64,000 bases of DNA from Candidatus Aminicenantes bacterium (GCA_963813235.1 CAWEYF010000012.1:4170-68169), one strand, 5' to 3'; counted from the first letter of the stretch, positions 4,630-30,524 are shown. A program made the numbers and translations. Notes: generated from the sequence alone by a model not told the origin.

Positions 4630-5844
4630 CTAACGGATCTCAGGGAACGCCGCCTCGAGCGACTCGAAGACCCAGGCCGCCAGCTTCTCCTGGAAGTCGG
4701 CGATGGCGGCCGGAGCGGGCCGCGTCTCCTCCCACTCCTCGAGCCGATCCGAGGCGCGGGCAAGGGCTTCGTTCTCGATGCGGAAGAGCTTCGGCAGGAC
4801 GCCTTCGTCGCCGCAGGTCCTCAACCGGTCGACATCGAGGTACTGTTTCATCCGGCCGCGCTGGTCCGGATAAAGATAAGAGACGAGCTTTTTCGACCAG
4901 TCGTTGAGCGGGGCCGTCTCGGGACCGGTCGTGACCGAGGGGACATCTCCGGCCGCGACCCACATCGGCACGGCCGCGCAGGAGACCGGCTGGCCGAGGT
5001 TGACCCACATCGTCGCGAGGCGGGCCTTGTCACGGGAAGGCGCCCCGTGGAAGAGGATGACCGATACGCTGGTGTTGCGGTTGATGGTGTCGTTGGTGTT
5101 GATGTAGAGCGGCTCGGCCGGATCGTCCGGGAGTTCCCGGGTCAGGGGATAGGAATGGAGCTTCTCGTGGACGAGGTCGCGCGAGGCCTGCTGGAGGATG
5201 AAGGCCGGGTCGATCTCCCCCCGGCCGAATCCGGCCTCGAGGATGTGCGAGATCCGCTCGAATCGGATGTAGCCTCCTCCCTTGAGATTGTCGGGCGACG
5301 TGAAGCCGTAGTTCGTCCGGGCGATGAACCCGAACGGCGCCACGCGGGCGTCCTGCGCGTCGAACTTGACGAACGACGTCGGCGAGGCCTCGAAGAAACA
5401 GGCGTTCCCCTCGGCGTCGATGACGCCGAAGTTCGCCGTCAGGTCGAGCGTCCCCTTGACCGCTTCCATGAGGGCCTCAAATTCGGGAACGTTCGCGCAT
5501 TCCCCGAGGGCCCGCCTCATGAACCGTCCGTTGTCAGCCCCGTCCTTCCCGGGCGCTCCCTGATCGTCTGTCTGGGAGTTCATGACGGCGAAGCCTTCCG
5601 AGTTCAGCCCTCCCCAGGCCTCCTCGCCTTTCGCGTCGCCGGCGTCGACCAGGGCGATGAAGGCGTATTTGGGGCCGGTGAGATAGAGGGTCTTGTTGTC
5701 GACCTTGTCCGTGTCCCGGTTCTTCCACATCAGGGCCCGGCCGTCGCGGGTGGCCTTGCCCGAGATTACGGCCAGCGTGCAGGGGTAGACGCTCGTGGCC
5801 GCGAGGCCGGCCAGCATGAAAGCGGCGATCCGTTTCGTTCGCAT
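4630..5844 (-). CDS. Exported N-terminal-nucleophile (Cys) hydrolase, choloylglycine hydrolase / peptidase C45-C69-like
   Basis: 404-aa ORF. A signal peptide (MRTKRIAAFMLAGLAATSVYP) is followed directly by Cys (CTLAVISGKATRDGRALMWKNRD), the layout of Ntn cysteine hydrolases. This is a family-level call only. Confidence 0.55.
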   Translation of the reverse strand: MRTKRIAAFMLAGLAATSVYPCTLAVISGKATRDGRALMWKNRDTDKVDNKTLYLTGPKYAFIALVDAGDAKGEEAWGGLNSEGFAVMNSQTDDQGAPGKDGADNGRFMRRALGECANVPEFEALMEAVKGTLDLTANFGVIDAEGNACFFEASPTSFVKFDAQDARVAPFGFIARTNYGFTSPDNLKGGGYIRFERISHILEAGFGRGEIDPAFILQQASRDLVHEKLHSYPLTRELPDDPAEPLYINTNDTINRNTSVSVILFHGAPSRDKARLATMWVNLGQPVSCAAVPMWVAAGDVPSVTTGPETAPLNDWSKKLVSYLYPDQRGRMKQYLDVDRLRTCGDEGVLPKLFRIENEALARASDRLEEWEETRPAPAAIADFQEKLAAWVFESLEAAFPEIR

Positions 5845-5861
5845 ATCCGTCCTCCCGGTCC

Positions 5862-6887
5862 CTACCGGATCTTGAGGAGGGTCGCCAGGTTGGCGCCGCG
5901 GTCCTCGACGAGCTCGATGTTCCCGTCCTTCGAGGTGAAGAGGGCCGTCACGCCCGGTCCGTGGCCGGCCACCCAGCTCCGGCTATGGGAGATGCTCCCG
6001 ACCGTGATCGCGCCCTGCCTGTAGATCCTTCCGTACGTGGCGTCCGCGTCCACGATCCCGACGAGGTCGCCGAACCGCAGGCGATCTAAACCATATTCCT
6101 TGACGGTCTTCTCATCGAACATCTGGATGTCGTAGTCGCCCCGGTATGCGTTGTCCGCCCCCAGGCCGGAGCCCATGATCTTCGCCGGGACCACGACCGC
6201 AACCGGGACGCGGAGCTTTCCCCCGGGCGTGACGCCCATGCCGAGCCCGGTCAGGGCGTCGATGAGCTCGGGCCCGATGTTCAGGGCCTTGACTCCGGGG
6301 GCGTTCTTGAGCTCCATTCCGAAGCCGACCGCGGATATCTGCATCTTGTCGCCGACCGAGAGCTTGTCGAAGACCGAGGCGTCCGGGAAGTCGACCATGA
6401 CGTGCTCGGCGCCGCCGTGCTTCCCGATGACGTACCCGATCGCCCCCTTGCCGTCGCCCGTCCATATCCTGACCTTGTTCCCGATGCAGGCCAGGGTGTT
6501 GAGGCCGCGGCTTTCGCGGCCGGAGCGGGAGTTCTCGGCGCCCGGGTTGAACAGGGTGACCGCGGGCTCGACGTGGTCGCCGGCCAGGTTGATCGCCGAA
6601 TCGCCCGAACGGAAGTTGTAGGTGATGCTTCCCGTGCCCGGGTTGAGCCGGATCTTCCCGTCGGGGTCGATGTCGTACGGCGAGTCGCCGAGCCCTGCCG
6701 GAGCGATGAAGCCCACGACCGCCTGGACGACGAGCATATCCTTGTTGTATTCGAGGGGCTTGAGGTCCCTCGACGGAGCGGCCTTTTGCCCCGCCGGGAT
6801 GGTCCCGGCCGCGAAGAGAAAGGCGATCGGGAGGACGACAAGCGAAAGAATGGCCTTGCGCGAACGATCCGGAGTGAACATGATCAT
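5862..6887 (-). CDS. Exported/anchored hypothetical protein
   Basis: 341-aa ORF with an N-terminal hydrophobic segment (AILSLVVLPIAFLFAAG) and protein-like composition. There is a 17-nt gap to the downstream Ntn hydrolase gene. I cannot name a motif in it. Confidence 0.55.
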   Translation of the reverse strand: MIMFTPDRSRKAILSLVVLPIAFLFAAGTIPAGQKAAPSRDLKPLEYNKDMLVVQAVVGFIAPAGLGDSPYDIDPDGKIRLNPGTGSITYNFRSGDSAINLAGDHVEPAVTLFNPGAENSRSGRESRGLNTLACIGNKVRIWTGDGKGAIGYVIGKHGGAEHVMVDFPDASVFDKLSVGDKMQISAVGFGMELKNAPGVKALNIGPELIDALTGLGMGVTPGGKLRVPVAVVVPAKIMGSGLGADNAYRGDYDIQMFDEKTVKEYGLDRLRFGDLVGIVDADATYGRIYRQGAITVGSISHSRSWVAGHGPGVTALFTSKDGNIELVEDRGANLATLLKIR

Positions 6888-18071: not shown

Positions 18072-19859
18072 GTGATCACGATGGACGTCTTCGGCTGGCT
18101 TCAACTGACGCTCTTTCTGGGGATTCTATTCCTCGTCACGAAACCGGTCGGCCTATATCTTGTTCGGGTCCTGGAGCCCGAAGGGAAAACCTGGCTGGAC
18201 CGGTCCCGTCAAGCCCGTCGAACGCCTGCTTTACCGCGTGCTCGGCATCGATCCGGGGAAGGAGCAGAATTGGAGGGAGTATGCCCGGTCCCTGATCGTC
18301 TTCAGCCTGGTCGGGCTGCTCTTCACCTACGCCGTCCTCCGGCTCCAGCATTTCCTCCCGTTGAATCCGCAGGGATTCGGGCCCGTTCGGCCCGACCTCG
18401 CCTTCAACACGGCGGCCAGCTTCACCACCAACACGAACTGGCAGAATTACGCGGGAGAAACGACGCTGTCCTATTTTTCGCAGATGGTCGGGCTCGTCTT
18501 CCACAATTTCGTCTCGGCGGCCGCCGGCATCGCCGTCGCCGCGGCCCTGGTCCGCGGCATCGCCCGGCATTCGGCCAGGACCATCGGGAACTTCTGGGTC
18601 GACCTCGTCCGGGTCAATCTCTACCTGCTGCTTCCGATCTGCGTCGTCTTCGCCCTCTTCCTGGTCTCCCAGGGCATCATCCAGAACTTCAAGCCCTACG
18701 TCAGGGCGGCGTCCCGTGCGAGAGCGCGCCTCGGCGGCCACCGGACAAGGCCGGGGATCCGCCAGACCATCGCCCAGGGCCCGGTGGCCTCCCAGGTCGC
18801 CATCAAGATGCTGGGGACGAACGGCGGCGGCTTCTTCAACGCCAATGCCGCCCATCCCTACGAGAACCCGACGCCGCTCTCGAACTTCATCCAGATGCTC
18901 TCGATCTTCCTCATCCCGAGCGGCCTCACCTATTACCTCGGGCGCACGGTCAGGAACCAGAAGCACGGCTGGGCGGTGTGGGGCGCCATGGCGATCCTCT
19001 TCCTGGCCGCCGTGCTCGTCTGCTGGCGGGCCGAAAGCGCCGGCAATCCGCGCCTGCACGCCCTCGGGGTGGACCCGGCCGGCAGGCAACATGGAAGGCA
19101 AGGAGGTCCGGTTCGGCATCTTCAATTCCAGCCTGTTCGCCACCGTCACGACCGACGCCTCCTGCGGGGCGGTCAACTCCATGCACGACTCCTTCACGCC
19201 CCTGGGCGGGCTGGTCCCGCTGTTCAACATCCAGCTCGGCGAGGTGGTCTTCGGCGGCGTCGGCGCCGGCCTCTACGGGATGCTCGTCTTCGTGGTCCTG
19301 GCCGTCTTCCTCACCGGCCTGATGGTCGGGCGGACGCCGGAATACCTGGGCAAGAAGATCGAAGCCTACGACGTGAAGGTCTCGCGTCCTGGCGGTCCTG
19401 ATCCTCGATCTTCGCGATCCTCGGGTTCTCGGCCTGGGCCGCCGCCAGCCGGTGGGGCTTGGCCGGCTTGAACAACGCCGGACCCCACGGCTTCAGCGAG
19501 ATCCTCTATGCCTTCTCGTCCGGCGCGGGCAACAACGGCAGCGCCTTCGCCGGCCTGAACGGCAACACGCCCTGGTACAACACCACCCTGGGGCTGGCCA
19601 TGCTCTTCGGCCGATTCTTCATGATCGTGCCCGGTCCTGGCCCTGGCCGGGAGCCTGGCCCAAGAAGAAGCTCGTCCCGTCCGGCGAAGCGAGCTTTCCC
19701 GGCAGCGGCCCGACGTTCACCGTCATCCTCATCGGGACGGTCCTCATCGTCGGCGCGCTGACCTTCCTGCCCGCCCTGGCCCTCGGCCCCATCGTCGAGC
19801 ATTTCCTGATGACCGGGACGGGTCTCTGTATTAAGGGAGGACGAACGATGCCAGCATGA
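18072..19859 (+). pseudogene. kdpA: K+-transporting ATPase subunit A, frame interrupted at least 5 times
   Basis: KdpA segments are readable in alternating frames: [124 protein letters not shown]. Frame switches are near 18205, 19085, 19383, 19408 and 19640. Confidence 0.85.
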
Positions 19860-21873
19860 ACCATCCGCTGTTCGACCGGGCCATCGTCGGCCAGGCGGCG
19901 ATCGACTCCTTCAGGAAGCTCAATCCGGTCTCCCTGCTGAAGAATCCGGTCATCTTCGTCACCGAGGTCGGGGCCGCTGCTGACCACCCTCGGCCTGTTT
20001 CTGGGATCGAAGAACGAGCCGGCGGGCTTCGTCGCTCCAGGTCTCCCTCTGGCTCTGGTTCACGGTGCTCTTCGCCAACTTCGCCGAGGCGATGGCCGAG
20101 GGCCGGGGCAAGGCCCAGGCCGACGCGCTCCGCAAGACCCGGACCCGGACCATGGCCAACGCTCGTCGGGCCGGACGGCTCGATCGCGAACGGTCCCGGC
20201 CGAACGGCTGCGGAAAGGCGACCTCGTCGTCGTCTCCGCCCGCGAGATGATCCCGGCCGACGGCGAGATCGTCGAGGGCGCGGCAACGGTGGACGAATCG
20301 GCCATCACCGGGGAGTCCGCCCCGGTCATCCGCGAAGCGGGCGGCGACCGGAGCGCGGTCACCGGCGGGACGCGCGTCCTCTCCGACCGGATCAAGGTCC
20401 GCGTCACGGCCGACCCCGGCGAAGAGCTTCCTGGACCGGATGATCGGCCTCGTCGAAGGGGCGAAGCGGCAGAAGACGCCGAACGAGATCGCCCTGACCA
20501 TTCTGCTCTCGGCCCTGACGATCATCTTCCTCGTCGTCGTCATCACCCTGAAGCCGTTCGGCCGCTACTCCGGCGTCGACCTGACGATGACCGTGCTCGT
20601 GGCCCTGCTCGTCTGCCTGATCCCGACGACGATCGGCGGCCTGCTGAACGCCATCGGGATCGCCGGGATCGACCGCATGGTCCAGAAGAACGTCCTGGCC
20701 ATGAGCGGCCGGGCGGTCGAGGCGGCCGGGGACGTGGACGTCCTCCTGCTGGACAAGACGGGGACCATCACCCTGGGCGACCGTCAGGCGACGGCGTTCC
20801 TGCCGGCGCCGGGCGTGACGGTCGAGGAGCTGGCCGACGCCGCCCAGCTCGCCTCCCTGGCCGATGAGACGCCCGAGGGGCGGAGCATCGTCGTCCTGGC
20901 CAAGAACTACGGATTGAGGGGGCGCTCCCTCTCGGAGATGCCGGGCGCGACGTTCATCGCCTTTTCCGCGCAGACGCGGATGAGCGGGGTCGATCTCGAC
21001 GGCCGACGCATCCGGAAGGGCGCCCCGGACGCCGTTCAGGCCGTTCATCGGGACCGCCATTCCCGCGGAGGTCCGGGACGCCGTCGAGCGGATCGCGTTC
21101 CGGGCGGGACCCCGCTCGTCGTCGCCGAAGGAACGCGGGTCCTGGGCGTCATCCACCTCAAGGACATCGTCAAGGGCGGGCTCAGCGACCGCTTCGAACG
21201 GTTCCGGGCCATGGGGATCAGGACCGTGATGATCACCGGCGACAATCCGCTCACCGCGGCCGCCATCGCCGGGGAGGCCGGCGTCGACGACTTCGTCGCC
21301 GAGGCGAAGCCGGAGGACAAGCTGGCCCTGATTCGGAAGGAGCAGGCGGCGGGGCATCTCGTGGCCATGACCGGCGACGGGACCAACGATGCCCCGGCCC
21401 TGGCCCAGGCCGACGTCGGGGTCGCCATGAACACCGGGACGCAGGCGGCCAAGGAGGCCGGGAACATGGTCGATCTCGATTCGAATCCGACCAAGCTGAT
21501 CGAGGTCGTCGAGATCGGGAAGCAGATGCTCATCACCCGGGGCGCCCTGACGACCTTCAGCATCGCCAACGACGTGGCCAAGTACTTCGCCATCATCCCG
21601 GCCATGCTGGTCGGCGTCTTCCCCGTCATCGCTCCGCTCAACATCATGGGCCTCGGGTCGCCGGAGAGCGCGATCCTGAGCGCCGTCATCTTCAACGCGC
21701 TCATCATCGTCGCCCTGATCCCGCTGGCGCTCCGGGGGGTGCGCTTCCGCCCCTTGGGCGCGGCCGCGCTCCTCCGGCGCAATCTCCTGGTCTACGGCCT
21801 GGGCGGCCTTATCGCGCCGTTCCCGGGCATCAAGCTCATCGACATCGTTGTCAACGCCTTGCATCTCGTTTAA
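19856..21873 (+). pseudogene. kdpB: K+-transporting P-type ATPase subunit B, frame interrupted at least 7 times
   Basis: Motifs: [73 protein letters not shown]. Frame switches are near 19975, 20035, 20160, 20190 and 20425, plus a compensated pair near 21040 and 21105. The start overlaps the kdpA stop (ATGA). Confidence 0.85.
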
Positions 21874-21892
21874 CATGAGGGAGTGAACGGAA

Positions 21893-22486
21893 ATGAAGCC
21901 CTGGCTCGCGGAATTCCGGAGGTCGCTGATGGCCGTGTCGGCTCTGGCCGTCCTTCTGTGCGGCCTTTACCCCGTGGTCGTCTGGATCCTGGCCCACGGC
22001 CTTTTCCCCGCCCGGGCCGACGGTTCTCTCATCGTACGGGACGGGGAGATCAGGGGATCGAGCCTGATCGCGCAGGGATTCACCGGCCCCGGGTATTTCC
22101 ATCCCCGGCCCTCGGCGGCGGGAAACGGCTAGGACGCCGCCCGGTCCGGCGGGAGCAATCTCGGGCCGTTATCGAAGCGATCTGTTCGAGATCGTCGCCG
22201 ACGCGTCGCCGATTATCGGCCGAGAACGGCCTCCCCGCCGGGACGCTCGTTCCCGCCGACGCCGTGACGGCTTCGGCCAGCGGCCTCGATCCGCATATTT
22301 CGTTGAAGAACGCCCTCCTCCAGGCCCGCCGCGTGGCCAAGGCGCGCGGTCTCGCGGAGACGGACGTCCGCACGCTCGTCGAAGAGCGGACCGAAGGCAC
22401 GGTCCCTGGGCATTCTCGGCGAGCCGCGCGTCAACGTGCTGCCGCTGAATCTGGCCCTGGACGGGGTCCCCGATGGCGGAAGATAG
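21893..22486 (+). pseudogene. kdpC: K+-transporting ATPase subunit C, in-frame TAG plus several frame switches
   Basis: N-terminal TM segment. RSGGSNLGP and [14 protein letters not shown] are KdpC motifs. There is an in-frame TAG at 22130-22132 where Tyr is expected ([15 protein letters not shown]). At least 4 further frame changes lie between 22170 and 22410. Confidence 0.8.
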
Positions 22487-24143
22487 GGCCGATACCTTCC
22501 TCCGGATGATCCGCCGCTCGCGGCACGGGCGGCTGAAGGTCTATCTCGGCTACAGCGCCGGCGTCGGCAAGACCTACCAGATGCTCCAGGAAGGGCACCG
22601 GCTGAAGAGCCGCGGGATCGACGTCGTCATCGGGTCTGCTCGAGACGCACGGCCGGGCCGATATCGCCGATCTCGCCCGCGGGCTGGAAGTGGTCCCCAG
22701 GCGCCGGCAGGAGTACCACGGCATCGCCGTGGAAGAGATGGACGTGGACGCCGTCCTCGCCCGCAAGCCGCAGGTCGCGCTCATCGACGAGCTGGCCCAT
22801 ACCAATGTCCCCGGCAGCCTGAACGCGAAGAGGTACGAGGACGTTCAGGACATCCTGGCGGCGGGGATCCACGTCATCACGACCATGAACGTCCAGCACC
22901 TGGAAAGCCTCTACAACATCGTCGAGGGCTCGGTCGGCGTCAAGGTCCGGGAGCGGCTCCCGGATTCCGTCCTGGCCGAAGCCGACGAGATCGTCGACGT
23001 CGACCTGGCGACCGAGGACCTCCGGAAGCGGCTCGAAGAAGGCAAGATCTACCCCGCCGAGCGCGTCGGAACGGCCCTGGCGAATTTCTTCACCTCCTCG
23101 AACCTGGAAAAGCTCCGCGAGCTGACCCTCCGCGAGCTCGCTGTCGCAGATCGATCTGAGGAGGCGGGAGACCCCGCGAGGACGAGAGCGCCTCCGCGGC
23201 GGAACAGGTCATGGTCTGCCTCAGCTCGCGCGGGCCCGACAGCGAAAGGCTTTTGCGCTACGGCTCGCGGCTGGCGGGAAAGCTCAACCGGAACTGGTAC
23301 GCCGTCTATGTCCAGACGCCGTCCGAGGAGGCCCGGGCCATCGACGCCCGGACCCAGCGGCTCCTCTCGGACACGCTGACCCTGGCCAAGCAGCTCGGCG
23401 CCATGGTGTTCACCTATAAGGGAGAGGATGTCGTCGACACCCTGCTCCGTTTCGCCGGGGAGTACCGCGTGGGGCATATCGTCGTCGGGCGATCGTGCCC
23501 GAAGCCGTTCTGGAAACGCCTGAGCGGGAACAGAACCGTCGTCGGCGATCTTCTGAAAAAGGCCCGCGGCGTCGTCGTGACCGTCCTCGATACCCGGGGA
23601 GAGGCGATCTCCGCGATGCGACCCCCGCAGGGGAGCCCGCGGGAAGAGAGGCGTCCCCCGCAGGCCGGCGGGCCTTCGTTGAGCCGATGGCTGGCCGCCC
23701 GCCGGATCGTCATCTGGGACGAACCCGTCCCGAAGGAGACCGTCCTCCGGACGCTGGCGTCGACCTTCGGAAAGGAGGACGGGATCGGCGACGGGGAAGC
23801 CCTTTACTCGGCTATCCTGAAGCGGGAGGGACAGGGCTCGACATTCTTCAACGAGGGCGTGGCGTTCCCCCATGTCCGCGTCCGGGGCCTGCCCGCCCCG
23901 GCCATCGCCCTGGGGCTGACGAGGGAGGGGGTCCCGGACGTCGTCACCGAGAAACAGATGGAGATCGTTTTTCTCATCCTGTCGCCCGAAGAGGAACCGA
24001 ACACGCAGGTGGAGCTCTTGGCTCTGGCCGGCCGGGCCGCGAGGAACAGGTCCCTGCTCCGAGACCTCGCGTCCTGCGCGACGGGAGAGGATGTCCTCGC
24101 CGCGATCCGGGATTCGGAAGCGGCCCGCGACCCCCGGCTTTGA
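22473..24143 (+). pseudogene. KdpD N-terminal sensor domain + Usp domain fused to a PTS EIIA(Ntr)-type domain; no TM or kinase domain; frame interrupted at least 3 times
   Basis: KdpD-N: LKVYLGYSAGVGKTYQML, LETHGR, IDELAHTN, TTMNVQHLESL. Usp-like: VMVCLSS...NWYAVYVQTP...HIVVG. C-terminus: AILKREGQGSTFFNEGVAFPHVRV...EIVFLILSPEEE...LLALAGRAARN, which aligns to E. coli PtsN (AILTREKMGSTGIGNGIAIPHGKL...DLLFALLVPADQ). Frame switches are near 22640, 23140 and 23170. The frame is intact from 23211 to the stop. Confidence 0.75.
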
Positions 24144-24300
24144 TACGTTCGCGGCGCCAAGCTCGATCTTCAAATCGGGGTAAAAAAGCGCCGCTCAGTA
24201 TCAACCCTGAGCATACCCGGGCTTCAGGCCGTGGGAGTCGAATGGGTTGATTTTTCTGAGTCCCTTATAATGAGGCGCGGCTTCCGGCGAGGAGTGAACG

Positions 24301-25502
24301 ATGTACGGGCGTTTCCAAGAATATCTTCAGGGCGAGCTGGAGCAGGATCAAGGCCGAGGGCCTCTACAAGCTCGAGCGGGTCCTGACGACCTCGCAGGGC
24401 GTCGAGATCCGGACCGAGGACGGGCCGAAGGTCCTCAACTTCTGCGCCAACAACTATTTAGGGCTCTGCAACGAGCCGCGGGTCATGGCCGCCGCCAATT
24501 ACACGTTCTTCCGGCTGGGCTACGGCATGGCATCGGTGCGCTTCATCTGCGGCACCTCCGAGGTCCATAAGGAGCTCGAGCGGAGGATGAGCGAGTTCCT
24601 GGGCACGGACGACACCCTGCTCTATTCCTCGGCCTTCGACGCCAACGGCGGCGTCTTCGAGCCTCTGCTCGGCGAGGACTCGGCCATCATCTCGGACGAG
24701 CTCAACCACGCCTCCATCATCGACGGCGTCCGCCTCTGCCGGGCCCGCCGCTACGTCTACAAGAACAACGACATGGCCGACCTCGAGGCGAAGCTCAAGG
24801 ACGCCGCGGACGCCCGGTTCCGGCTCATCGTCACCGACGGCGTCTTCTCGATGGACGGCATCATCGCCCAGGTGGACAAGATCTGCGAGCTGGCCCGCCG
24901 CTACGACGCCCTGGTCATGGTGGACGACTCGCACGCCACGGGCTTCATCGGAAAGACGGGGCGGGGGACCCATGAGCATTGCGGCGTCATGGGCGATGTG
25001 GACATCATCGTCACGACCTTCGGCAAGGCCCTCGGCGGGGCCTCCGGCGGCTGTATCTCCGGGCGGAAGGAGATCGTCGAGTTCCTGCGGCAGAGGTCGC
25101 GGCCGTACCTGTTCTCCAATTCGCTGACGCCCGGCATCGCCGGGGCCACGATCGAGGTCCTGAAGATCCTCGGGGAATCGACGGAGCTCAAGGACCGGCT
25201 CGAACGGAACACGGCCCGCTTCCGGAAGGGGATCGAGGCCGCCGGGTTCCGCATCGTCCCGGGCATCCATCCCATCGTCCCCATCCTCCTCGGCCACCTG
25301 CCGAACGACGCCAAGCTCTCCCAGGACTTCGCCGAACGCCCTCCTCGAGGAGGGCATCTACGTCATCGGCTTCTATTTCCCGGTCGTCCCGCGCGGCAAG
25401 TCCCGCATCCGGGTCCAGATCAGCGCCGCCCACACCCCCGAGCAGATCGACTTCGCCGTCGAGAAATTCGCCAAGGTCGGAAGAGCCCTCGGCGCGATCT
25501 GA
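24301..25502 (+). pseudogene. kbl: Glycine C-acetyltransferase-type alpha-oxoamine synthase (Kbl-like), frame interrupted twice
   Basis: Motifs: [72 protein letters not shown]. Frame switches are near 24345 and 25335. The corrected C-terminus is [30 protein letters not shown]. Confidence 0.8.
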
Positions 25503-25518
25503 GGCCGCCGCCCTGTCT

Positions 25519-25546
25519 TTGACAATTCCGGCCCGTCCCTTATAAT
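25519..25546 (+). promoter_or_regulatory. Sigma70 promoter (TTGACA-16-TATAAT) for acpS
   Basis: TTGACA at 25519-25524, 16-nt spacer, TATAAT at 25541-25546. The acpS ATG at 25554 is 7 nt after the -10 element, implying a leaderless or near-leaderless mRNA. Confidence 0.6.
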
Positions 25547-25553
25547 GATTCCC

Positions 25554-25958
25554 ATGATCTTTGGCATCGGCACCGACATCATCGAGGTCGGCCGGGTCGA
25601 ACAGAAGCTCGCCCGGACGGAGGGGCTCAAGAAGAAGCTCTTCACGGGAACCGAGACCGCTTACTGCGAATCCAAGCACCGCCCCGCCCTTCACTACGCC
25701 GCCCGGTTTGCCGCAAAAGAGGCGTTCCTCAAGGCCATGGGGACCGGCTGGAGCGGCGGGCACCGGTTCGACGAGATCGAGATCGTCAACGACCCCCTGG
25801 GAAAGCCCGAGCTCTTTGTCCACGGCAAGGTCCGCGAGTTCTGCGGGACCCGGGGCGTCACCCGCATGTCGGTTTCACTGTCCCACGTCAAGGAAATAGC
25901 GGCGGCCTTCGTCGTCCTTGAAACGGCGCCCGAAAAAATCAGCGGTTCCCGCGAATGA
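25554..25958 (+). CDS. acpS: Holo-[acyl-carrier-protein] synthase (4'-phosphopantetheinyl transferase)
   Basis: MIFGIGTDIIEV...AARFAAKEAFLKA...SLSH are AcpS motifs. The track start at 25545 lies inside the -10 hexamer, so the ATG at 25554 is preferred. Confidence 0.85.
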   Translation: MIFGIGTDIIEVGRVEQKLARTEGLKKKLFTGTETAYCESKHRPALHYAARFAAKEAFLKAMGTGWSGGHRFDEIEIVNDPLGKPELFVHGKVREFCGTRGVTRMSVSLSHVKEIAAAFVVLETAPEKISGSRE

Positions 25959-25980
25959 TCCGCCACGGGAGGAGAAGCGC

Positions 25981-27686
25981 ATGTCCAACATCGGCTCGTT
26001 AGACGACCGGGTGAAAGGCTCCACCTGGGCCGTCTCGGCCGAAGAGCTCGGCTACAAGGACGGCGACGTCATCAATATCGGCTGGTATTGCTCCGACAGG
26101 ATTTGCGCGACAGGGGAAGGCCGGCAAGCTCGCCCTCATTTGGGAAGGGCACTACCGGCGTCGAGAAACGCTTCACGTATAACGACGTCCGTCTGGCCTC
26201 GAACACCGTCGGCGCCTTCCTCCGCGGCCTGGGCATCAAGCCCGGAGAGCGGGTTTGCCTGTTCATGGACAAGGTTCCCGAGCTCTACCTCGGGTTCCTC
26301 GGCGTCCTGAAGATCGGGGCCATCGCCCAGCCGCTGTTCTCGGCCTTCGGCGACGAGTCCCTGTTCGTCCGCCTGTCGGACGCCGGGACCTCGGCGGTCA
26401 TCACCCAGAAGAAGCACGCCCCGAAGGTCCGGAAGATCCTCGACCGCCTGCCCCACATCCGGCACATCATCGTCGTGGACCACGACGGCATCGCGCCCCT
26501 CAAGGACCGCGAGGTTGCCTTCTCCCTCGAGAAGGCCGCGCCCGTCGAGCACCTCGAAATCCACCCGACCACGGCCGAGTCGCCTTCGGTCATCCACTAC
26601 ACTTCGGGGACGACGGGGATGCCCAAGGGCGTCAAGCACGTCCATTCCTCCCTCATCGCCCAGTACATCACGGCGAAGTGGGCCCTCGATCTCCGTGACG
26701 ACGACATCTACTGGTGCACGGCCGACCCGGGCTGGGTCACCGGGACTTCCTACGGCATCATCGCCCCCTTCGCCCTGGGCGTCACCCAGTGCGTCATGGA
26801 CGCCGGGTTCTCGGCCGAGGCCTGGTACCGGTTCGTCGAAAAGCGCCGGGTGACCATGTGGTATTCCGCCCCGACGGCCATCCGCTCCCTGATGAAGGCC
26901 GGCGACGAGCTCGTGAAGAAGTTCGACCTGTCCTCGCTCCGCCACCTGGCCAGCGTCGGCGAGCCCCTGAACTCCGAAGCCGTCGTCTGGTCCCAGAAGG
27001 TCTTCGGCAAGCCCTTCTACGACACCTACTGGCAGACCGAAACGGGCTGCATCGTGATCGGCAATTACCCCGGCATGGAGGTCAGGCCCGGCTCTATGGG
27101 GAAGCCGTTCCCCGGCATCACGGGCACCATCCTCGACCCGGTTCGGAACGAGCCCTATCCCGTTCACGGGAAGATCGGCCTCGTCGCCCTGAAGTTCGAC
27201 TGGCCGTCGCGGATGCGGACCTACTGGAACAACGAGGAGGCCTTCGCCAGGAAATTCCGTAACGGCTGGTATATCACGGGCGACCGGGCCCGGATCGACA
27301 AGGACGGCTACTACTGGTTCGCCGGGCGCGACGACGACATCATCAACACGGCCGGCCATCTGGTCAGCCCGTTCGAGGTCGAGTCGGCCCTGCTCGAGCA
27401 CCCGGCGGTCGCCGAGTCGGCCGTCGTCAGCAAGCCGGACCCCATCAACCTCGAGGTCGTCAAGGCCTTCGTGGCCCTGAAGCCGGGATTCGCGGCGGGC
27501 AAGGACCTGGACCTCGACATCATGAACTTCGTCCGGAAGAAGCTCTCGCCGCTGGCCATGCCCCAGGAGATCGAGTTCGTCGACAGCCTGCCCAAGACGC
27601 GGAGCGGGAAGATCATGCGCCGCATCCTCCACGCCCGCGAGTGGGGCGAGGAGATCGGCGACACCTCGACGCTCGAGAACGATTGA
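25981..27686 (+). pseudogene. AMP-forming acyl-CoA/acyl-carrier synthetase (acetyl-CoA synthetase-like), frame interrupted twice near the 5' end
   Basis: GGGAGGAG RBS before the ATG at 25981. Motifs: YTSGTTGMPKG, YWCTADPGWVTG, GYYWFAGRDDDIIN, PKTRSGKIMRR. The N-terminus reads ...DRICATGEG | AGKLALIWEG | TTGVEKRFTYND, with frame switches near 26118 and 26148. Confidence 0.8.
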
Positions 27687-27714
27687 AGTACAATAGACCT
27701 TCAGGAGAATCAAC

Positions 27715-27963
27715 ATGGACGATCTCAAAGACGTCGTATTGAAGTACGTGACCGAGGAATACCTCGAGACCGACAGCGATCCGATCACCTTCGAGACCCC
27801 GCTCATCTCGGGGGGCATCGTGGACTCCTTCTCGATGGTCTCGCTGAAGCGGTTCCTCGAGAACAGATACAACATCCAGATCCCCGACGACAAGGCGACG
27901 CCCGAGGCGTTCGATTCCGTCAACCGCATCGCCGATCTCGTCCGGGAATTCGTCAAGGCCTAG
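27715..27963 (+). CDS. Acyl/peptidyl carrier protein
   Basis: 82-aa ORF with the phosphopantetheine attachment context GGIVDSFSMVSL. It lies between the AMP-ligase and the oxoamine synthase. Confidence 0.8.
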   Translation: MDDLKDVVLKYVTEEYLETDSDPITFETPLISGGIVDSFSMVSLKRFLENRYNIQIPDDKATPEAFDSVNRIADLVREFVKA

Positions 27964-28010
27964 CCCTCCGGCGGCCGGGCGACGGAAGACCGTTCTCAGG
28001 AGGTTCCCTC

Positions 28011-29258
28011 ATGGCATACAGCGACAAGGTCCGCGGCATCTACGAAGCCCAGCTCCAGGGCATCCGGGACGCGGGCATCTTCAAGCAGGAAAGGTACATC
28101 CACTCGCCGCAGGCGGCCGACATCGAGGTGGAGTTCCCCTCCGGCGCGGCCTTGAAGAAGGTCATCAACATGTGCGCGAACAACTACCTCGGCCTCTCGA
28201 GCCATCCGGACGTCGTCCGGGCGGCCCATGAGGGGCTCGACGCGCGCGGCTACGGCATGTCTTCGGTCCGTTTCATCTGCGGCACCCAGGACATCCACCG
28301 CGAGCTCGAGCGCCGGGTGACGGAGTTCCTGGGGACAGAGGACACCCTCCTCTTCCCCTCGTGCATGGACGCCAACGCCGGTGTCTTCGAGGCCATCCTG
28401 ACCAAGGACGACGTCATGATCTCGGACCGGCTTGTCCACGCCTCGCTCGTCGACGGCATCCGCCTCTGCTCCGCCATGCACGACACCTACAAGCATTCGG
28501 ATATGGCCCACCTCGAGAGCAAGCTTCTGCTCTACGCCGACAAGCGGCTCAAGGTCGTCATCACCGACGGCGTCTTCTCGATGGACGGCGACGCGGCGAA
28601 GCTCGACGCAATGGTCGCCCTCTGCGATAAGCACGACGCCATGCTCCTCGTCGACGAATCCCACGCTTCGGGCTTCATCGGGAAGACCGGCCGCGGGACG
28701 CACGAGCGGTGCGGCGTCATGGGCAGGATCGACGTCATCACGACGACGTTCGGCAAGGCCCTCGGCGGGGCGTCCGGCGGCTGCGTCTCCGGCCGCCGCG
28801 AGCTCGTCGAGATGTGCCGCCAGAAGGCCCGGCCGTATCTTTTCTCGAACACCATCGCCCCGGTCGTCGTGGCCGGCGTCCTCAAGGTCATGGAGATCCT
28901 GTCCGGGAGCACGGAGAGACGCGACAAGCTCGAGGCGAACTCCGCCTACTGGCGGAAGGGCCTGGCCGAGGCCGGCTTCGTCCTCAGGGAAGGCGACACG
29001 CCCATCGTTCCCGTCATGCTGTTCAACGCCAAGCTCGCCCAGGACTTTTCCAAGGCCCTCTACGATGAAGGGGTTTACGCCATGGGCTTCTTCTTCCCGG
29101 TCGTCCCCCAGGGCCAGGCCCGCATCCGGACCCAGCTCTCGGCCGGCCACGAGACGCACCACCTCGACAAGGCCCTCGACGCGTTCGTCAAGGTCGGGAG
29201 GAAGTACGACATCCTGGGCAAGAGCAAGCAGGAGATCATCGAGAAATACGGGATGTAG
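28011..29258 (+). CDS. Glycine C-acetyltransferase-type alpha-oxoamine synthase (Kbl-like), intact
   Basis: 415-aa ORF. Motifs: [61 protein letters not shown]. It is paralogous to 24301-25502 and has an extra C-terminal tail (KYDILGKSKQEIIEKYGM). Confidence 0.85.
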   Translation: MAYSDKVRGIYEAQLQGIRDAGIFKQERYIHSPQAADIEVEFPSGAALKKVINMCANNYLGLSSHPDVVRAAHEGLDARGYGMSSVRFICGTQDIHRELERRVTEFLGTEDTLLFPSCMDANAGVFEAILTKDDVMISDRLVHASLVDGIRLCSAMHDTYKHSDMAHLESKLLLYADKRLKVVITDGVFSMDGDAAKLDAMVALCDKHDAMLLVDESHASGFIGKTGRGTHERCGVMGRIDVITTTFGKALGGASGGCVSGRRELVEMCRQKARPYLFSNTIAPVVVAGVLKVMEILSGSTERRDKLEANSAYWRKGLAEAGFVLREGDTPIVPVMLFNAKLAQDFSKALYDEGVYAMGFFFPVVPQGQARIRTQLSAGHETHHLDKALDAFVKVGRKYDILGKSKQEIIEKYGM

Positions 29259-29291: not shown

Positions 29292-30524
29292 CTAGAAGTT
29301 GTACTGGATCCCGATGACGGCGCCGGCCTGGGAGAGGCCGAGCTTATTCGACAGGTCGGCAATCTCGGGGCTGACGTAAGCCATCTTGAGGTCCAGGATG
29401 AACGAGATCTTAGTTGACAGCGCGTACTCGAACCCGGCCCGGACTCCCGCCAGGATGCTCGAGGCCGTCTTATCCGCAAAGGTGACCTCGCGGATGCTGG
29501 CGTCGGCCTCGGTGTAGGGAGAGCGGTCCTCGATGTCGATCACGTCGAGGAACCTGGACTTCCCGAAAACATAGCCGAGCTCCGGGCCCGCCAGGACCGT
29601 CAAGGCCCCGTTCGTGAAGACGCGGACGAGCCCGAACGCCGATACGGCGGTGAAGTAGCTGCGGAACGAGTCCGTTTGGGTGAGGGTCCGAGCGCCATCG
29701 GTCACGACCGGATTGGGGACCGTGAACACGTAGGTCCCGTCGCTCTTGAAGTTCCAGTACTCGAGGTCGAGCCCCAGCTTGATGTTCATGTCCTGGAGAT
29801 GCACATATTTTCCGAAGGTCAATACGGCCGGGGTGTTCAACTTCGGCTTAAGGGTCGATTCCGCCGTCCCTTCCTCCTGAGTCCCGTTGACGACGAAGGT
29901 TTGGGTGAAGACGGATCCGGAGCTCAGGAACGTCCCGACCCCTCCGCCGAGGAGGACGAAGAACCCTTTATCGGCTCCGCCGCCGGGCGGGACCGGCGCG
30001 GGGATCGCTGCGGGCTGAGCGCGGGGCGCGGCGACGGACGCGGGCGGGGCTTCCGTGGGCTTCCGCGGCGCGGCCTTCGCCGGGGCGATCGGCGCCCTTT
30101 CATCGTCCCTCAGGGCGCTCGTCCCTTCCTTCCAAAAGGTGACCTTCAGTCCGTCGGCCGCCCTGTCGATCCGGTACATGACGCCCGGGCCGTCGAGGTC
30201 GAAGACGATGCGGGCGACGTCGGCCTTGAACCGGCCCGTTCTGACCCGGAGAACACCTCCCGCGGCGACCTCGATCTGGGGGGAAGCCGAGATCGCATCG
30301 ACGGGGGACACGTCGATGACGAGCCGTTCGGGCTCCTTGAGCGTAAAGGCCTCGTTCCCGAATTCGCCGCGGATGCGTAGGGTGACCGCGACGGCTGGCC
30401 CTTCCTTCGTGAACGAGATCGATTCCAGGTCGGCCGCCTGGAGCGCGGAAGGCCGAAGGCCGGGGGCGGCCCAGAGCACGAATCCCGCCATGAGGGAAAC
30501 CGCGAGAAGCCTTTTTCGTGTCAT
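29292..30524 (-). CDS. Outer-membrane protein: AMIN domain + Pro/Ala linker + C-terminal beta-barrel
   Basis: Signal peptide, then an AMIN-like segment (ISFTKEGPAVAVTLRIRG...PERLVIDVSPV...RVRTGRF...VARIVFDL). This is followed by a PAPAKAAPRKPTEAPPASVAAP linker and alternating beta-strand sequence ending in GIQYNF (terminal Phe). Confidence 0.65.
   Translation of the reverse strand: MTRKRLLAVSLMAGFVLWAAPGLRPSALQAADLESISFTKEGPAVAVTLRIRGEFGNEAFTLKEPERLVIDVSPVDAISASPQIEVAAGGVLRVRTGRFKADVARIVFDLDGPGVMYRIDRAADGLKVTFWKEGTSALRDDERAPIAPAKAAPRKPTEAPPASVAAPRAQPAAIPAPVPPGGGADKGFFVLLGGGVGTFLSSGSVFTQTFVVNGTQEEGTAESTLKPKLNTPAVLTFGKYVHLQDMNIKLGLDLEYWNFKSDGTYVFTVPNPVVTDGARTLTQTDSFRSYFTAVSAFGLVRVFTNGALTVLAGPELGYVFGKSRFLDVIDIEDRSPYTEADASIREVTFADKTASSILAGVRAGFEYALSTKISFILDLKMAYVSPEIADLSNKLGLSQAGAVIGIQYNF

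Follow-up and report, generated by a model that had tools for sequence, protein, structure and literature searches.

We propose that a small gene cassette of a Candidatus Aminicenantes bacterium encodes a carrier-protein version of the metabolic node at which threonine, glycine and acetate meet. The node comprises threonine dehydrogenase (Tdh), glycine C-acetyltransferase (Kbl) and acetyl-CoA synthetase (Acs). The version suggested here would work independently of coenzyme A (CoA), and we hold with moderate confidence that this, rather than a lipid pathway, is what the cassette provides. The cassette occupies positions 24301-29258 of the analysed stretch of 64,000 nucleotides (hereafter the window). 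The window is contig C12:4170-68169 of a metagenome-assembled genome (MAG) of 2.7 Mb, which consists of 29 contigs and is 69.6% complete; the nearest public relatives of the window are labelled Candidatus Aminicenantes.

In the proposed scheme, the holo-(acyl-carrier-protein) synthase AcpS would first put phosphopantetheine on Ser38 of an 82-aa carrier protein. A ligase derived from AcsA would then adenylate acetate and hand the acetyl group to the holo-carrier in place of CoA. Next, Kbl2, an enzyme dependent on pyridoxal phosphate (PLP), would interconvert acetyl-S-carrier and glycine with 2-amino-3-oxobutanoate and holo-carrier. Finally, a Tdh of the short-chain dehydrogenase/reductase (SDR) type, encoded by nearly all relatives, would tie 2-amino-3-oxobutanoate to L-threonine. 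We infer that both enzymes use the acyl carrier protein (ACP) and not CoA as their thiol, on the strength of gene order, of paralogy, of the similar fold and of a single altered residue. The acyl group is presumably acetyl.

Composition and conservation of the cassette

The original prediction described five co-oriented genes, and domain and hidden Markov model matches recover all of them in place; that two have interrupted reading frames had gone unmentioned. All five lie on the plus strand. The first, Kbl1 (24301-25502), is a canonical Kbl, which reached 515 bits on TIGR01822 when the genome was scanned. It is followed by AcpS (25554-25958; PF01648 59.7 bits, TIGR00516 93.5 bits, NF000832 109.1 bits) and by an AMP-forming acetate ligase of AcsA type (25981-27686; AMP-binding and AMP-binding_C domains), which we designate 'GHL' type and propose to be an acetate:carrier-protein ligase. 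Then come the dedicated carrier protein (27715-27963; PP-binding domain) and, invariably closing the cassette, the diverged Kbl paralogue Kbl2 (28011-29258). Scores are to be read against the NCBIfam equivalog cut-offs of 493 bits for TIGR01822, 460 for NF005394, 729 for NF003313, 59.8 for TIGR00516 and 107 for NF000832. An annotation pipeline would be expected to label the block kbl, acpS, acs, acp and kbl.

Just before acpS lies a sigma-70-like promoter, TTGACA-16 nt-TATAAT (25519-25546, plus strand), which matches the consensus at 12 of 12 positions; the region holds two such sites, where shuffled sequences lead one to expect 0.7. This perfect promoter separates Kbl1 from the remaining genes. 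The core unit is acpS, ligase, ACP and Kbl2 (25554-29258), and Kbl1 stands beside it as a separate transcription unit. The promoter ends 8 nt ahead of the ATG at 25554, which opens the canonical AcpS N-terminus MIFGIGTDI. Given this distance, the four-gene mRNA may be leaderless or nearly so.

Relatives of the ligase number at least 594 in a scan with one genome per species, and the best 80 loci were kept for neighbourhood counts. The flanks were adequate in 68 loci for downstream counts and in 75 for the upstream count of AcpS. Downstream of the ligase, the ACP comes next in 66 of the 68 loci and Kbl2 is found in 65, while AcpS directly precedes the ligase in 53 of 75. The gaps around the ACP measure 30-100 bp. 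The ligase is 70-94% identical to that of the window, the ACP 57-83% and Kbl2 73-95%, and the loci carry the labels of about ten phyla (Aminicenantes, Bacteroidota, KSB1, Zixibacteria, Cloacimonadota, Elusimicrobiota, Gemmatimonadota, Marinimicrobia, Delongbacteria, Ignavibacteriota and others). Such an arrangement is far beyond chance. The original prediction would have been given up had the block not been conserved as a unit; conserved it is. When all flank open reading frames (ORFs) of the 80 loci were clustered, no other family was common to more than 13 of them. The ACP family itself comprises at least 8000 clusters at 90% identity.

Three loci depart from the order. L064 and L079 have only acpS and the ligase, and L082 has the ligase with an 86-aa ACP and no Kbl2. 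In L064 (9569-13660), small ORFs of HipA-N-like and helix-turn-helix type and a gene for a 1044-aa protein come after the ligase, which suggests that an insertion displaced ACP and Kbl2.

Trees of Kbl2 and of Kbl1-type synthases ignore phylum labels. For example, KSB1 and 'Cytophagia' sequences are essentially identical, the Aminicenantes Kbl1 nests with Bacteroidales, and several MAG loci are labelled 'Eubacteriales' or 'Alphaproteobacteria'. Either the cassette has moved horizontally or many of the MAG taxon labels are unreliable.

Ligase and carrier protein

Once its frame is repaired, the ligase scores 736.5 bits on NF003313, the equivalog of AcsA-type acetate-CoA ligases (PRK04319); its intact orthologue in L074 scores 742.9 bits. 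The nearest solved structure is AcsA 9g79 (572 aa, 548 bits). Alignment to 2p2f reveals that the residues of the acetate pocket of Salmonella Acs (SeAcs), namely Val310, Thr311, Val386 and Trp414, are all kept. Motifs and residues were counted in 73 orthologous cassette ligases: GWVTGTSY and SVGEPLN are present in all 73, and D[TS][YF]WQTETG in 67, the window having DTYWQTETG.

The thioester-forming step is where the cassette ligases differ. Arg191, Arg526 and Arg584 of Acs are reported to be needed for CoA binding and for the second half-reaction (PMC10455477). Arg526 of SeAcs is replaced by Leu, in a GHL motif, in 73 of 73 cassette ligases and in five further ligases; the arginine is retained in Bacillus subtilis AcsA, in 8rpk and in the second, canonical Acs of the same genome (contig C17). 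By these residues the ligase is predicted to be an acetate enzyme with an altered thioester-step residue. We also considered the missing Arg191/Arg194 CoA loop as a sign against CoA use, which proved non-diagnostic, as B. subtilis AcsA is without this loop, too.

The pocket bears on the product imagined in the original prediction. There, a longer acid would be placed on the carrier and joined to an amino acid, in the style of Caulobacter Spt, AcpR and AasR, to yield a lipid headgroup or a sphingoid-like long-chain aminoketone. The architecture of ANL ligase, dedicated ACP and alpha-oxoamine synthase is the same as in AasR-AcpR-SPT, where SPT stands for serine palmitoyltransferase (PMC9386255). 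However, the pocket of the ligase is of the acetate type and includes the Trp that blocks longer chains. With the properties of the synthase and of the neighbouring genes described below, this makes a lipid product very improbable, and the suggestion finds no support.

The carrier protein was correctly recognized in the original prediction by its DSF serine site. It has 82 residues and a PP-binding domain, is acidic (pI 4.3), and carries the phosphopantetheine site Ser38 in the invariant motif VDSFSM, i.e. with D37-S38-F39 invariant. Its core, TPLISGG-VDSFSM-SLKRFLE, is nearly invariant among orthologues, and it is distinct from the housekeeping AcpP encoded on contig C24. An AlphaFold2 model (mean pLDDT 86.6) finds its best fold matches in DltC in complex with DltB (6bug), PigG, PltL, the Bradyrhizobium glycyl carrier (4h2u) and DltC alone (4bph). 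These matches rank above the fatty-acid ACPs, and all of them are carriers charged by stand-alone adenylating enzymes. The best NCBIfam match of the carrier, the ACP of the OlsH/OlsI ornithine-lipid pathway (NF052616), was rejected: it reaches 60.9 of the 130 bits required. OlsH, on which that pathway depends, is GH3-like, and neither a GH3-like nor an OlsI-like gene was found in the window or in the conserved flanks.

The Kbl2 clade

Both synthases of the cassette exceed the Kbl equivalog cut-offs. Kbl2 scores 563.0 bits on TIGR01822 and 561.0 bits on NF005394, and the repaired Kbl1 scores 615.7 and 614.7 bits. Both remain far below the cut-offs for SPT, BioF, ALAS and CqsA. On the three SPT equivalogs, for example, Kbl2 attains 303.6 bits (NF047600, cut-off 640), 274.6 bits (NF047599, cut-off 500) and 233.4 bits (NF047603, cut-off 670). 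Against solved structures, it matches the Kbl enzymes 7bxp, 7v58 and 1fc4 at about 450 bits and serine palmitoyltransferase at 225 bits. Residues K244, H136, D210, H213, S185, T241, R368 and N50 (E. coli Kbl numbering, checked against 1FC4) are the same in all 91 aligned sequences of Kbl1 or Kbl2 type, so that all catalytic and glycine-carboxylate residues of Kbl are retained. These scores and residues further speak against a synthase of long-chain aminoketones.

A maximum-likelihood tree was calculated from 96 synthases. The enzymes that end the cassettes all group in a single clade (59 rows, support 100/99) with short internal branches and a stem of about 1 substitution per site. The clade lies within the Kbl radiation, together with E. 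coli Kbl and the Kbl1 of the window; the latter belongs to the canonical Kbl clade and is 94% identical to its orthologue in L007. Eighteen positions are fixed differently in Kbl2, including N135V beside the PLP-stacking His, F112M, L264C, F309W and V352A. Further, Kbl2 ends in a conserved 15-residue C-terminal tail, YDILGKTKQEIIEMYGM, with which canonical Kbl is not equipped. We regard Kbl2 as a distinct paralogue with predicted Kbl chemistry. The ACP directly upstream, the substitutions of the clade and the tail argue for the carrier protein as its probable partner.

Links to threonine and acetate

The genes that recur around the cassette point to amino acid and acetate metabolism. An SDR/GalE-like protein of the flanks matches solved L-threonine 3-dehydrogenases (7ol1, 410 bits). 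Recurrent are also a zinc-dependent Tdh (531 bits, cut-off 380), the acetate channel SatP/AceTr (272 bits, cut-off 50) and canonical Kbl. A Tdh of either type, SDR or zinc-dependent, is present in 20 of the 80 loci, in many cases running in the same direction and directly adjoining acpS or the ligase; in L046 the stop codon of tdh overlaps the start of acpS. SatP occurs in 13 of the 80 loci and directly follows Kbl2 in the closest relatives, L099-L101. There it begins 13 bp past Kbl2 (L099:10558-11127, L100:2406-2975, L101:1690-2259; 274 bits, cut-off 50). In the window, Kbl2 is followed by a convergent AMIN-domain gene (29292-30524), with no SatP between them. An SSF transporter near the L099 cassette was considered as an ActP acetate permease and turned out to be PanF/PutP-like instead.

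None of the conserved flank clusters of the 80 loci contains a reductase, a ceramide synthase, an N-acyltransferase or another lipid-tailoring family. With two unrelated types of Tdh and an acetate channel in their place, the neighbourhood, like the pocket and the Kbl-level scores, turns away from the lipid headgroup or sphingoid-like base of the original prediction.

Among 121 sampled genomes of the window's order, which include 29 others of its family, Kbl2 is found at 69% identity or more in about 77. SDR-type Tdh is encoded in 112 of the 121, i.e. in 83 of 87 high-quality genomes and in all 29 others of the family. The zinc-dependent type was considered as the partner enzyme of the order and set aside: it is present in only two of the 121 genomes, and the relevant type is the SDR one. 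The original prediction counted it as damaging if both synthases proved bona fide Kbl in genomes that encode tdh elsewhere, and with Tdh so widespread this is largely the picture obtained. In one genus (g4), ten sampled genomes have both Tdh and Kbl2. Each of them gives two synthase matches at E <= 1e-60, and the second, where listed (three genomes), is a BioF-like paralogue of 37-38% identity. No canonical Kbl was seen in these ten genomes, the second match being listed for three of them; Kbl2 would consequently be the only available partner of Tdh in this genus.

As the original prediction stated, the window contains no tdh, and none was found in the genome at its 69.6% completeness. This agrees with another possible use of the cassette, in which acetyl-ACP and glycine, or another small amino acid, would yield 2-amino-3-oxobutanoate and from it aminoacetone, leading to pyrazines or another diffusible aminoketone independently of threonine. 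The chemistry of Kbl and Tdh is a known source of aminoacetone-derived pyrazines, and the Kbl2 substitutions, such as N135V by the PLP-stacking His, could alter the handling of substrate or product. We nevertheless consider such a small-molecule or signal role quite improbable. Around the cassette, no conserved genes for tailoring, export or reception turned up. Tdh is encoded by nearly every genome of the order, frequently next to the cassette, and conservation as high as 73-95% between phyla fits core metabolism better than signalling chemistry.

In L095, a YdfG-like SDR (5827-6597; 265.7 bits, below the cut-off of 411) replaces Kbl1 upstream of acpS. E. coli YdfG oxidises L-allo-threonine and serine. 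The L095 protein could perhaps supply the keto acid by another route.

Ligase-carrier pairs without Kbl2

The pair of ligase and carrier protein also occurs apart from Kbl2. In L082, the ligase and its 86-aa ACP lie within about 3 kb of an MBOAT protein and an SGNH-like protein of about 310 aa. Three additional loci were fetched through the subfamily of 86-aa ACPs; two of them, L102 and L104, have the same context and L103 does not, giving three of four in total. The respective regions are L082:5165-9832, L102:5246-11260 and L104:136-7261. The MBOAT protein is DltB-like (174 bits on TIGR04091, below the cut-off). The ligases of these loci are about 70% identical to that of the window, and the GHL motif and the acetate pocket are common to both.

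These loci may represent a Dlt-like O-acetylation system dependent on an acetyl carrier. In a Dlt-like layout the carrier must be the acyl donor, which supports the notion that the ligase charges the carrier with acetate. The chain of events envisaged in the original prediction, from adenylating enzyme through an AcpS-activated dedicated carrier to an oxoamine synthase, is in this respect strengthened by context, namely by the locked position of the ACP between ligase and Kbl2, by the carrier fold and by the recurrence next to MBOAT, and seems plausible to us.

Interrupted reading frames

The frame of Kbl1 shifts at about 24344 and 25334, and that of the ligase at about 26110 and 26154. DNA comparison with the relatives L007, L099 and L095 (88-91%, about 90% and about 93% identical to the window, respectively) revealed that each of the four shifts is one inserted base. 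Removal of the four bases restores a 399-aa Kbl1 and a 567-aa ligase, which are the exact lengths of the orthologues in relatives. The four shifts are the last of a tract of about 27 single-base insertions (18761-26154) relative to the three genomes. The genes broken by the tract are kdpA, kdpB and kdpC, a KdpD-EIIA gene and Kbl1, together with the ligase gene at its 5´ end; the next 3.1 kb of the cassette after 26154 have no insertions relative to the same relatives. Because the tract contains insertions only, is sharply bounded and leaves the codons otherwise well conserved, it is probably a local artefact of assembly or polishing and not gene decay. None of the insertions lies in an obvious homopolymer.

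Carrier protein or CoA

The simplest alternative is that the cassette clusters ordinary CoA enzymes: a normal acetyl-CoA synthetase, a CoA-dependent Kbl isozyme, the housekeeping AcpS, and an ACP that serves another process or a regulatory one. Several observations favour it and weigh against our proposal. The ligase lies above the cut-off of the acetate-CoA ligase equivalog, and Kbl2, like Kbl1, lies above that of Kbl and may therefore use acetyl-CoA. The equivalent of SeAcs Arg584, which contacts the 3´-phosphate of CoA, is kept in the ligase (FVRKKL), and the Arg191 loop is missing from the bona fide AcsA of B. subtilis as well. The AcpS of the cassette is the only one found in the genome (single tblastn match) and may simply be the housekeeping enzyme.

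Other points concern the pathway as a whole. The missing tdh belongs among them, and it is most simply a consequence of genome incompleteness, since SDR-type Tdh is encoded by 112 of the 121 genomes of the order. Of these 121, 106 encode ThrC, so threonine need not be made by the cassette; an absence of ThrC, considered as support for threonine synthesis, is not borne out. Similarly, AckA is present in 72 of the 121 genomes, among them the genome of the window itself and all 29 other genomes of the family, and ATP from a reversed ligase is not required either. An absence of AckA was considered as support for an ATP-conserving reverse ligase, and by hand count about 57 of the 77 Kbl2-positive genomes do have AckA. 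Lastly, the frames of the ligase and Kbl1 are broken, and should the insertions be genuine, the copy in the window would be non-functional.

Against clustered CoA enzymes stand five findings. Firstly, ligase and Kbl2 enclose the ACP in 65-66 of 68 loci under about ten phylum labels. Secondly, the genome possesses a canonical Acs (C17), a housekeeping AcpP (C24) and a canonical Kbl, which leaves the cassette copies as extra paralogues. Thirdly, Kbl2 is set apart by its long stem, by the substitutions fixed in its clade and by the conserved tail. Fourthly, Arg526 is Leu in every cassette ligase. Finally, ligase and ACP also occur as a pair in the MBOAT context without Kbl2. On this balance we consider it unlikely that the cassette is composed of ordinary CoA enzymes, and continue with an acetyl-carrier cassette as the preferred explanation.

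Direction and possible role

The proposed cassette could in principle run in both directions. We lean modestly towards loading of acetate and condensation, in which acetate, ATP and glycine would give 2-amino-3-oxobutanoate and then, with NADH, threonine. This lean is due to the MBOAT context, which requires an acetyl donor, and to the general behaviour of carrier-loading ANL enzymes. The opposite course, cleavage of threonine into glycine and acetyl-ACP with the ligase reversed to make ATP, appears somewhat less probable to us. Riboswitches gave no clue to direction: neither a glycine riboswitch nor any other was found in 19 cassette loci. Whichever way the cassette runs, the cell could use a private carrier pool to adjust the ratio of acetyl-thioester to thiol apart from that of acetyl-CoA to CoA, which would offer a rationale for the carrier.

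A broader idea, which we put forward only tentatively, is that the GHL ligase and the DltC-like carrier constitute a general two-gene, CoA-free acetyl-donor module of many uncultured anaerobes. Combined with Kbl2, the module would place the threonine/glycine/acetate node on an ATP-charged pool insulated from acetyl-CoA/CoA. Combined with a DltB-like MBOAT protein and an SGNH protein, it would serve extracytoplasmic O-acetylation. In that case central metabolism would have acetyl-ACP as a second acetyl currency, concealed at present by the annotations 'acetyl-CoA synthetase' and 'Kbl'.

If the carrier-dependent scheme is true, thousands of annotations as acetyl-CoA synthetase or glycine C-acetyltransferase are wrong in their cosubstrate. 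The organisms affected would include Aminicenantes, Bacteroidales, Cloacimonadota, Zixibacteria and KSB1, which dominate anoxic sediments and digesters, and models of acetate, glycine and threonine flux in them would miss a CoA-independent branch. The cassette would be the first C2 case of a design, ANL ligase with private ACP and alpha-oxoamine synthase, known until now solely from the synthesis of long-chain sphingolipids. It would also offer a natural Arg526-to-Leu variant of Acs for the study of acceptor choice and directionality. For the window itself, a lipid pathway need no longer be entertained, and the frame breaks most probably stem from assembly.

Apart from the cassette, the sole Rfam match in the window is a cobalamin riboswitch (RF00174, 32628-32803, minus strand, 92.1 bits), situated upstream of a gene for a TonB-dependent receptor.

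Comparison with known systems

In a full-text literature search, neither an ACP-dependent Kbl nor an acetate:ACP ligase of Acs type was found to have been described. Four known systems each resemble the cassette in part. With the classical combination of Tdh, Kbl and AMP-forming Acs, represented by E. coli Kbl (1FC4), Cupriavidus necator Kbl (7BXP) and AcsA of the B. subtilis type (9G79), it shares the enzyme families and the predicted chemistry. Common to both are equivalog-level scores, the catalytic residues of Kbl, the acetate pocket of Acs and the frequent tdh neighbour. The cassette differs in its built-in carrier and AcpS, in the separate Kbl2 clade with its tail, in Leu for Arg526, and in that canonical Kbl and Acs coexist with it in the same genome.

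SaAcs1 of Syntrophus aciditrophicus is an AMP-forming Acs biased to ATP formation, with the bias encoded near the CoA-binding region (PMC13404658), and provides an anaerobe precedent for operation towards acetate and ATP. Unlike the ligase proposed here, SaAcs1 uses CoA and no carrier protein, and its determinants G196 and T197 lie in the CoA loop, which is missing from AcsA-type enzymes including this one; a reverse operation of the cassette ligase is only hypothetical.

The AasR-AcpR-SPT system of Caulobacter and other 'Rhodobacteria' is proven experimentally: an ANL ligase charges only its own small ACP, which is the preferred substrate of the synthase (PMC9386255). The cassette would follow the same logic, and its genes are likewise adjacent. 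The differences are a C2 acyl group, as predicted from the acetate pocket, in place of a long-chain fatty acid; a Kbl-type synthase (glycine, non-decarboxylating) in place of SPT; and links to amino acid and acetate metabolism in place of ceramide genes.

The DltA/DltC/DltB/DltD system likewise relies on a stand-alone adenylating enzyme and a carrier of about 80 aa. DltC is the nearest match to the predicted fold of the carrier of the cassette, and the MBOAT proteins of L082, L102 and L104 extend the likeness. The ligase, by contrast, is derived from Acs and has an acetate pocket, whereas DltA is a D-alanine ligase, and the predicted acceptor enzyme in the window is a soluble, PLP-dependent Kbl paralogue and not a membrane acyltransferase. 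Taken together, the predicted chemistry of the cassette is closest to that of Tdh/Kbl and Acs, and its architecture is closest to AasR-AcpR-SPT and DltA-DltC.

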